A DNA stretch of 555 bases from a phage, in the sequence record EF517106.1; one strand, 5' to 3'. Made by a program: the position numbers and the translations under genes. This document shows positions 112 to 555 of the stretch, piece after piece (the first letter of the stretch is position 1; every line of letters starts with the position of its first letter). Below the pieces are notes generated by a model. It worked only from the letters and a program-made list of their open reading frames with translations, was not told the origin of the DNA and searched no databases.

Positions 112-261
112 ATGTTTCGCTTATTGTTGAACCTACTGCGGCATAGAGTCACCTACCGATTTCTTGTGGTACTTTGTGTTGCCCTTGGGTACGCATCTCT
201 TACTGGAGACCTCAGTTCACTGGAGTCTGTCGTTTGCTCTATACTCACTTGTAGCGATTAG
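112..261 (+). CDS. 19.5: Small hydrophobic protein of 49 aa, T7 gene 19.5 homolog; function not established to my knowledge
   Basis: Seen: ATG 112-114 to TAG 259-261 translates to MFRLLLNLLRHRVTYRFLVVLCAALGYASLTGDLSSLESVVCSILTCSD. It has a strong RBS, a basic N-terminus (R3, R10, H11, R12, R16) and a hydrophobic core (FLVVLCAALGYASL). Recognition: the length and its position 240 bp before the terminal repeat match T7 gene 19.5 as I remember it (about 39389-39538). Confidence 0.9.
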   Translation: MFRLLLNLLRHRVTYRFLVVLCVALGYASLTGDLSSLESVVCSILTCSD

Positions 262-500
262 GGTCTTCCTGACCGACTGATGGCTCACCGAGGGATTCAG
301 CGGTATGATTGTATCACACCACTTCATCCCTATAGAGTCAAGTCCTAAGGTATATCCATAAAGAGCCTCTAATGGTCTATTCTAAGGTCTATACCTAAAG
401 ATAGGCCATCCTATCAGTGTCACCTAAAGAGGGTCTTAGAGAGGGCCTATGGAGTTCCTATAGGGTCCTTTAAAATATACCATAAAAATCTAAGTGACTA
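262..500. promoter_or_regulatory. Non-coding unique region between gene 19.5 and the terminal repeat; probable cis-acting packaging/concatemer-maturation signal region (pac-type) of a T7-like phage
   Basis: Seen: no ORF longer than 22 codons and none with an RBS; dense reiterated short motifs (CCTAAGG/CCTAAAG/CATAAAG, GGTCTAT, AGGGTCTT) and the palindrome CCTATAGG. Established knowledge, recalled not verified: in T7/T3 the sequences just left of the right terminal repeat are needed in cis for concatemer processing and packaging. The exact pac boundaries are not something I can place from sequence. Confidence 0.45.
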
Positions 501-555
501 TCTCACAGTGTACGGACCTAAAGTTCCCCCATAGGGGGTACCTAAAGCCCAGCCA
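501..555. repeat. First 55 bp of the T7-type direct terminal repeat (continues past the window end)
   Basis: Recognition: TCTCACAGTGTACGGACCTAAAGTTCCCCCATAGGGGGTACCTAAAGCCCAGCCA matches the start of the T7 genome / terminal repeat as I recall it. The 240 bp distance from the gene 19.5 stop agrees with T7 coordinates (TR-R start about 39778). The second copy is not in the window, so the repeat itself cannot be demonstrated here. Confidence 0.8.
526..538. repeat. GC inverted repeat CCCCC-ATA-GGGGG inside the terminal repeat (potential 5-bp stem, 3-nt loop hairpin)
   Basis: Seen directly: CCCCC at 526-530 and GGGGG at 534-538 are perfectly complementary around the ATA loop at 531-533. It is flanked on both sides by CCTAAAG heptamers (517-523 and 541-547). 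Any function is inferred. Confidence 0.6.

Follow-up and report, generated by a model that had tools for sequence, protein, structure and literature searches.

Same-strand heptamers across the concatemer junction of bacteriophage T7 and its relatives: candidate auxiliary sites for DNA maturation

Introduction

What purpose is served by the short repeats that crowd the ends of T7-type phage DNA, where one terminal repeat (TR) has to become two? The question is raised here by a 555-nt stretch of phage DNA (sequence record EF517106.1; the whole stretch analyzed is called the window below), in which a prediction made from the sequence alone had described an array of degenerate CCTAAAG-type heptamers at 344–547, running across the boundary between unique DNA and the TR. 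We take these heptamers to be the short repeats of Dunn & Studier 1981/1983, named SRL and SRR, and the feature is therefore already known. The finding thus rediscovers a classical textbook feature of T7, and its added value lies in comparative constraints, including a natural swap in phage Vi06. The original prediction was right that T7 ends carry short repeats, and it was also right that their role is unsettled, as their function is still unproven. The explanation that we tentatively regard as the most plausible is that the heptamers are redundant, low-specificity, polar cis sites that would aid processing of the junction by the DNA-maturation machinery.

The review literature treats T3 and T7 as a separate and less understood packaging case. 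Plasmids need the junction for packaging (Chung & Hinkle 1990, as used in PMC13236587). According to PMC3276506, which cites Yamagishi 1985 and Zhang & Studier 2004, the gp18 proteins of T3 and T7 are 93% identical and interchangeable, the packaging specificity of the two phages resides in gp19 together with DNA within 5% of the termini, and, at the junction, RNA polymerase-lysozyme that has paused interacts with gp18/gp19.

Results

Heptamers in the window and in the whole T7 junction

The window aligned end to end with T7 39278–39832 at 98.9% identity, bearing out its assignment to a T7-like phage, and it starts 50 bp past the phiOR start site (T7 coordinates). Bases 501–555 (plus strand) are the first 55 of the 160 bp of the direct TR and match T7 39778–39832, T7 39778 being TR base 1; the TR copies at the two T7 ends are identical. 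The heptamer cluster spans the unique/TR boundary as predicted, with the boundary lying between bases 500 and 501. Besides gene 19.5 and the start of the TR, the window contains approximately 240 bp of non-coding DNA.

The heptamers were far more frequent than expected by chance, as the original prediction had claimed. Exact CCTAAAG occurred four times, compared with 0.09 expected, and this count was reached in none of 200 shuffles (0/200). With at most one mismatch, 13 matches were found against 2.4 expected, 11/13 of them on the plus strand. The degenerate family on which the prediction was based, YMTAARG, had nine matches, compared with 1.15 expected on both strands (approximately 8-fold enrichment), and 9/9 were on the plus strand.

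To follow the window copies into the complete structure, the T7 junction was assembled in the order that it has in concatemers: right end, a single TR, left end. The family has 25 plus-strand and three minus-strand copies in this junction, the outermost positions being T7 39606 and left-end base 355, and the T7 heptamers are confined to this region of approximately 0.75 kb. The window copies are the right-hand part of approximately 25 same-strand copies that bracket the TR; they lie 43–171 bp before the TR start and within the TR, adjacent to the terminase cut. Past the TR, at the T7 left end, the family forms a true 13-bp array of 6 + 6 + 1 copies. In a logo made from 24 T7 copies, information was limited to the seven heptamer positions.

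All seven heptamers named in the original prediction were located correctly, on the plus strand. Their conservation was assessed in 16 Teseptimavirus-like loci anchored on gp19.5, referred to as relatives. CCTAAGG at 344–350 (T7 39621) and CATAAAG at 357–363 (T7 39634) are the first and second members of a pair spaced by 13 bp; the former is CCTAAAG in L009 and L017–L019, and the latter is CGTAAAG in L008, L013, and L014. TCTAAGG at 381–387 (T7 39658) was placed properly, whereas its sequence proved to be that of a mutated copy, CCTAAGG in T7 and most relatives. This is the least constrained copy, interrupted (CCGTAAGG) or altered in five relatives, and the one most often mutated or lost in nature and laboratory alike. 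CCTAAAG at 394–400 (T7 39671) is invariant in the 16 relatives, and CCTAAAG at 423–429 (T7 39700) is kept in 15/16, with variable flanks. Inside the TR are CCTAAAG at 517–523 (T7 39794, TR base 17), which is CCCAAAG or CCCAAGG in relatives, and CCTAAAG at 541–547 (T7 39818, TR base 41). Three plus-strand members had been missed: CCTATAG at 329–335, which overlaps the right arm of a hairpin and the boundary of a laboratory deletion (both described below), CCTATGG at 446–452, and CCTATAG at 457–463, a copy whose position relative to the TR start (−43/−45) is conserved and which immediately precedes a conserved box on its 5′ side.

Both spacings reported to recur in the window do so. The 13-bp spacing (344–357 and 381–394) is also that of the regular left-end array of T7, and there is no sign that the 24-bp spacing (357–381 and 517–541) is meaningful. 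The term array fits the window only loosely, with its two 13-bp-spaced pairs plus single copies; the periodic arrays are at the T7 left end. Tandem Repeats Finder detected only a two-copy 12–13-bp repeat at 368–398 in the window, and no periodic array. Both 13-bp heptamer pairs lie within a 37-bp imperfect duplication at 345–401 (CTAAGGTATATCCATAAAGA and CTAAGGTCTATACCTAAAGA, 85% identical). The related copies proposed further upstream, at 8–14, 41–48, and 94–100, were set aside as doubtful members of the family, with poorly conserved columns (pairwise identity of 0.40); that at 94–100 overlaps the ribosome-binding region of gene 19.5. A resemblance of the heptamers to positions −7 to −1 of phage promoters (ACTAAAG in T3, ACTATAG in T7) was also rejected, because the main T7 heptamer matches the promoter core of T3 and not that of T7.

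Conservation among close relatives

Conservation in relatives supported the predicted family, which was present on the plus strand in 16/16 loci; the same architecture, with a lineage-specific motif, was found in eight other lineages. The junction falls into three zones that evolve differently. The right-unique zone, which is that of the window, is frozen as a whole. In the TR interior, the heptamer drifts between CCTAAAG, CCCAAAG, and CCCAAGG, with conservation of 0.857 in heptamer columns and 0.811 in spacer columns. In the left array, whole 13-bp units are gained and lost, and the heptamer columns are better conserved than the spacer columns (0.859 vs. 0.759, p = 0.005). Selection on the heptamer as such is thus demonstrable from column conservation in the left array, outside the window. 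Judged by the same measure, the seven window copies do not form one functional unit, and those in the unique part are inseparable from a larger frozen block.

Two blocks stand out. Block A at 288–418 (plus strand; T7 39565–39695) is a hyperconserved non-coding block with 91% invariant columns, within which lie the hairpin and, together with their spacers, the first five heptamers. Block B at 462–510 (plus strand; T7 39739–39787) is the invariant box GGGTCCTTTAAAATATACCATAAAAATCT(G>A)AGTGACTA↓TCTCACAGTG (the arrow marks the cut), in which 48/49 columns (98%) were invariant in 16 genomes. It spans the TA↓TCTCAC cut (500/501) that makes the mature left end, and it is recognizable in T3, AP10, K11, gh-1, and Ninurta. 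For comparison, gene 19 is essential, and in the same genomes 51% of the columns of its 3′ part were invariant, against 91–98% in the two blocks. Despite the strong conservation of blocks A and B in nature, 288–331 and single heptamers of block A are deleted in viable laboratory clones.

A common architecture with lineage-specific words

Junctions were built for T3, AP10, K11, K1F, gh-1, SP6, and Ninurta, and then for phiYeO3-12 and Vi06. A dominant strand-biased heptamer was found in every one of them, and the common layout was also found in a further group of the 285P / Kvp1 / Yep-phi type, which uses CCTTATG. The word is CCTAAAG in T7, T3, phiYeO3-12, and Vi06; CCTAATG in Ninurta; CCTACAG in K1F; CCTGAGG, CCTTAGG, and CCTTGGG in K11 and KP32-like phages; CCTTGAG and CCTATGG in AP10; CCATAGG in gh-1; and CTTAGTG in SP6. 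One copy, in the variant proper to each phage, is fixed at −45 in T3, K11, K1F, gh-1, Ninurta, and phiYeO3-12, and at −43 in T7; the −45 copy stands directly 5′ of the conserved box CCTTTAAGAAT...AAAAATCTGAGTG..TA↓TCTCA. On the other side, the periodic left array starts 5–7 nt past the conserved GTCCCT↓ATCTGTT in T7, T3, AP10, and Ninurta.

The shared use of one word on both sides of the TR was cross-validated by learning the top exact 7-mer from the left flank only and scoring it on the plus strand of the independent right flank. The left-flank motif was enriched in the right flank in 7/8 phages (T7, T3, AP10, K11, K1F, gh-1, SP6, and Ninurta were scored), with a combined P of approximately 8e-10 by Fisher's method, and a phage's own motif had 3.75 matches on average, compared with 1.17 for the motifs of other phages. 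From lineage to lineage, the positions are kept and the word differs, the heptamer center changing concertedly over the entire 0.6-kb junction.

Comparison of the heptamer word with gp18, gp19, and host

The original prediction had named the small terminase subunit (TerS) gp18 as a candidate binder of the heptamers. As a specific reader, gp18 is disfavored by the comparisons of phiYeO3-12 and Vi06. The former has CCTAAAG, and its gp18 shares just 72% identity with that of T7; K11 (72%) and AP10 (70%) use other heptamers. In the Salmonella phage Vi06, gp18 is 96% identical to that of the CCTTATG phages and 73% identical to that of T7; the junction carries 29 CCTAAAG-family copies on the plus strand and four on the minus strand, distributed over all three zones, with CCTTATG at background, and the C-terminal 416 residues of gp19 are 97% T7-like. 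Because Vi06 pairs CCTAAAG with a gp18 like that of the CCTTATG phages, gp18 does not determine the heptamer center, and across the phages compared, the site sequence does not co-vary with this protein.

Residue-level candidates fared no better. Columns 24 and 45 of gp18 seemed to partition by heptamer in eight phages and failed in a sample of 80 loci, which was obtained with an alignment query (a scan with the single T7 gp18 protein reached only relatives of at least 86% identity): at column 24, A and K both occur with CCTTATG, and column 45 is broken by Vi06. As a tracking protein, gp19 was rejected on whole-protein identity, pairs of the same heptamer class going down to 0.79 and pairs of different classes reaching 0.84. 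No solved gp18 structure was found by sequence, and no gp18 DNA-binding data were found in the literature searched. A host factor is unlikely as the reader, since phages of one host use different words (T7 and K1F on Escherichia coli).

These comparisons lead to a broader proposal, possible in our view and on balance doubtful: a lineage-specific CCT-NNN-G word on one strand would mark the junction of all T7-group phages and be read by a phage factor that is not the small terminase and does not vary together with the complete large terminase. Candidates for it are a replication or recombination protein and, taken by itself, the nuclease domain of gp19. If the proposal is true, natural mosaics such as Vi06 could identify the reader and explain TR recognition and duplication in T7-type phages.

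The Vi06 locus (L084, 5434–8520) has further peculiarities. Gene 19 is apparently split into parts of 162 and 416 aa by an insert with a 200-aa open reading frame lacking a Pfam match, and an open reading frame for an HNH endonuclease (PF13392) lies between genes 19 and 19.5. The TR region contains four tandem CCTAAAGCCCT units. In the record, which is marked circular, only an 86-bp 'terminal repeat' is annotated.

Evolved T7 clones as natural deletion experiments

Deposited genomes named "Mutant T7 clone" (MZ3752xx) provided natural deletions; no publication describing records MZ375233–MZ375294 was found in a literature search. T7_30S, T7_250S, and T7_300S share a 189-bp deletion of T7 39420–39608 (window 143–331) between ATAGAGTCA direct repeats, which removes most of gene 19.5 together with an inverted repeat, I1, and ends exactly where the heptamer zone begins. 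Kim & Chung reportedly found in 1996 that 19.5 and 'm' are non-essential, and the deletion fits this finding. In T7_250S, a further loss of 10 bp fuses and destroys the copies at 39658 and 39671, and an in-register deletion of 144 bp reduces the left array from 13 copies to two. T7_300S has a point mutation in the copy at 39658. Thus, the evolved clones tolerate the loss of 13 of approximately 25 copies, and growth depends neither on individual copies nor on as many as half of them; every clone retained some. The left array was retained in most sibling clones, though their genomes are 2–3 kb shorter than that of T7.

Other changes were observed in the same two clones. ATCTGTT is mutated to CTCTGTT in T7_300S (L037, MZ375292) and to CCCTGTT in T7_250S (L038, MZ375282), phiOL (approximately 395–410) is shifted towards the promoter consensus in both, and both have an 18-bp deletion in the TR, to which T7_250S adds one of 11 bp.

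Pause signal and other elements of the junction

Polymerase pausing had been suggested as a role of the heptamers. The documented pause signal of this junction is ATCTGTT, the class II pause/termination signal of T7 RNA polymerase, with termination 6–8 nt downstream. It lies outside the window, at T7 left-end bases 161–167, just past the TR; in the window, there were no exact matches to it and a single one-mismatch match, at chance level. The left array of T7 (left end 161–181, L002) opens with a heptamer 5–7 nt past ATCTGTT, as do those of T3, AP10, and Ninurta. Given termination 6–8 nt past the signal, a paused polymerase would therefore sit on that heptamer.

Inverted repeat I1 at 291–331 (no strand assigned) had a predicted DNA fold of −7.2 kcal/mol (z = −2.8). 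Its structure is kept in the three sequences compared, those of T7, T3, and K11: the outer stem AGGGAT/ATCCCT does not vary, and in four inner pairs both partners have changed. Lying approximately 190 bp left of the TR, I1 is presumably the 'm' or M-hairpin element. The gh-1 record (L035, 501–570) has a putative RNase III site annotated between gene 19.5 and the TR, in the place of the T7 hairpin, and this site and the hairpin may be elements of one type.

Five recognition pentamers of T7 primase (GGGTC, TGGTC, and GTGTC; from PMC2910064) occur on the plus strand at 261, 373, 417, 431, and 463. Between 256 and 470, five were thus found on this strand against 0.95 expected (P of approximately 0.002), and none on the minus strand; a fork that travels to the right end uses the plus strand as its lagging-strand template.

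The window also contains gene 19.5 at 112–261 (plus strand, 49 aa), given here for context only. The six bases at which the window differs from T7 are all GC-to-AT transitions, comprising five C-to-T changes (117, 179, 312, 355, and 381) and one G-to-A change (492). Through the transition at 381, CCTAAGG of T7 (39658) has become TCTAAGG. The window bases at 381 and 492 occurred in 0/16 relatives, column 492 being otherwise invariant. This pattern suggests a mutagenized or deaminase-exposed laboratory lineage; among the records of the phage collection, none was closer to the window than wild-type T7. The sole match of Rfam covariance models to the window had E = 0.94, far under the gathering score, and the window contained no terminator-like sites, with promoter-like sites at chance level.

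Discussion

How might such sites act? We propose that, with the help of the heptamers (roughly C-C/A-T-A-A/T-A/G-G), the maturation machinery would locate the junction, assemble there, or pace itself along it. Their role would be auxiliary to that of sequence-critical elements, namely the invariant box that ends at the TA↓TCTCAC cut and, across the TR, the GTCCCT↓ATCTGTT cut with its RNA-polymerase pause site. Packaging of T7 DNA starts from its right end. The TR and the window would therefore precede all other DNA into the capsid, in a position like that of lambda cosB, and the 13-bp array past the TR would be met just before the terminating cut, in a position like that of cosQ. Protein binding to the heptamers, and a benefit of such binding to processing or packaging, are inferred. 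In favor of the proposal are the enrichment and strict polarity of the family, the layout common to the group with its lineage-specific words, the agreement of the two independent flanks, the copy fixed at −45 and the array start close to ATCTGTT, the restriction of information to 7 bp, the better conservation of heptamers than of spacers in the left array, and the need of packaging for this end region.

Several points weigh against this explanation. In the right-unique zone, heptamer and spacer columns are equally conserved (0.969 vs. 0.962, p = 0.44), and the excess in the TR interior is not significant (p = 0.17 with gaps excluded). The heptamer class tracks neither gp18, as Vi06 and phiYeO3-12 illustrate, nor gp19 by whole-protein identity. 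T7_250S was still recovered as a phage clone with 11 left-array and two right-unique copies gone. The analogy with cosB and cosQ would hold only under this packaging polarity, and no direct binding or mutational data on the heptamers are known to us or were found in the literature searched.

The same observations could be explained by functionless units that were amplified and homogenized by replication slippage and gene conversion and that, in the unique part of the window, belong to a larger conserved element. Relatives do differ by insertions and deletions of unit size, the collapse in T7_250S is in register, identical units (CCTAAAGACCAGA) follow one another in runs, the loss of many copies is tolerated, right-unique heptamers and their spacers are equally conserved, and the heptamer class follows neither terminase subunit; since the three zones are contiguous within approximately 0.6 kb in concatemers, concerted evolution can explain a shared lineage variant without a co-evolving reader. 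However, slippage copies whole 13-bp units, and yet the proximal left array keeps the heptamer while its spacers differ (p = 0.005). Strict polarity, an architecture common to phages as far apart as T7 and SP6 although the motif itself has turned over completely, non-tandem copies, including that fixed at −45, that carry the same lineage variant, and the retention of the array in most of the shortened evolved genomes also speak against it, and we consider this explanation unlikely. Polar signals that slow or position a moving enzyme, either T7 RNA polymerase coming from phiOR, the packaging motor, or a helicase, would account for copies that all lie on one strand, co-directional with phiOR transcription, and for a first left-array heptamer 5–7 nt past ATCTGTT, where class II termination occurs 6–8 nt downstream; junction transcription and pausing are tied to the start of packaging (PMC3276506). 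Nevertheless, the documented signal ATCTGTT is absent from the window and conserved in all lineages while the heptamers change, and T3 and T7 belong to different genera yet use the same heptamer. ATCTGTT itself is mutated in T7_250S and T7_300S, and strong pausing there is therefore not essential for growth under their conditions. To our knowledge, no pausing at the heptamers has been reported, and a role of this kind seems quite unlikely.

Specific recognition by gp18, with the heptamers corresponding to the R sites of lambda gpNu1 and a gp18 oligomer lying on copies 12–13 bp apart, would agree with the fact that T3 and T7 share CCTAAAG and have cross-complementing gp18 proteins of 92–93% identity (PMC3276506). 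Small terminases of other phages recognize repeated sites near the cut (PMC13595956), and an invariant gp18 core could read the invariant CCT...G part of the word. This possibility is made distinctly unlikely by phiYeO3-12, which has CCTAAAG with a gp18 as distant from that of T7 as those of K11 and AP10, which have other heptamers, by the CCTAAAG arrays of Vi06 beside a gp18 of the CCTTATG type, which amount to a natural exchange of gene 18 for one of the 285P type, by the failure of residues 24 and 45, and by the search for a gp18 structure or DNA-binding data, which found none. It is very unlikely that the heptamers act in the virion or at infection, with portal, core, or ejection proteins holding or threading the genome ends. 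The family does lie within approximately 360 bp of the tip at both mature ends, but its orientation is the same at both and thus of opposite polarity to anything approaching from a tip, one contiguous cluster exists only in the concatemer, and no supporting data were found. Redundant polar sites that assist the maturation machinery are thus the explanation that we retain.

How T7-type phages recognize the junction and make two TRs from one is still poorly understood according to the review literature, and T7 packaging signals are widely reused in phagemid and transduction tools. Knowing which parts of the junction matter (frozen boxes, hairpin, or heptamers) would permit smaller and better-defined packaging cassettes, and it would steer biochemistry away from gp18 as the presumed reader of the sequence.

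Among known elements, the repeats of Dunn & Studier are, in our view, the same object: the window copies are the T7 copies at 39621–39818, and the window departs from them only in being a variant of T7, in which one of the six GC-to-AT transitions damages the copy at 39658. The signal ATCTGTT resembles the heptamers in being polar, conserved throughout the group, and located at the same junction, directly before the first left-array heptamer; it differs in its sequence, its single copy, its invariance between lineages, and its position outside the window. The likeness to lambda cosB and cosQ would consist in several short same-sense sites by a precise terminase cut, on the DNA packaged first (TR and window, for cosB), and in a further element met just before the terminating cut (the left array, for cosQ). 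Lambda has three R sites of 16 bp, read by the small terminase with IHF, whereas T7 has approximately 25 repeats of 7 bp; unlike in lambda, many T7 copies are dispensable and the small terminase does not track the motif, so that the analogy would be positional only. The pac sites of SPP1 and P22, which are bound by the small terminase, are likewise cis sites near the start of packaging, but, unlike these headful phages, T7 makes precise cuts at the two borders of the TR and depends on transcription. KOPS, read by FtsK, and Chi, read by RecBCD, are similarly short, repeated, and strongly strand-biased words; they are distributed genome-wide and read by host enzymes, whereas the heptamers are confined to the junction and differ between phages that share a host.

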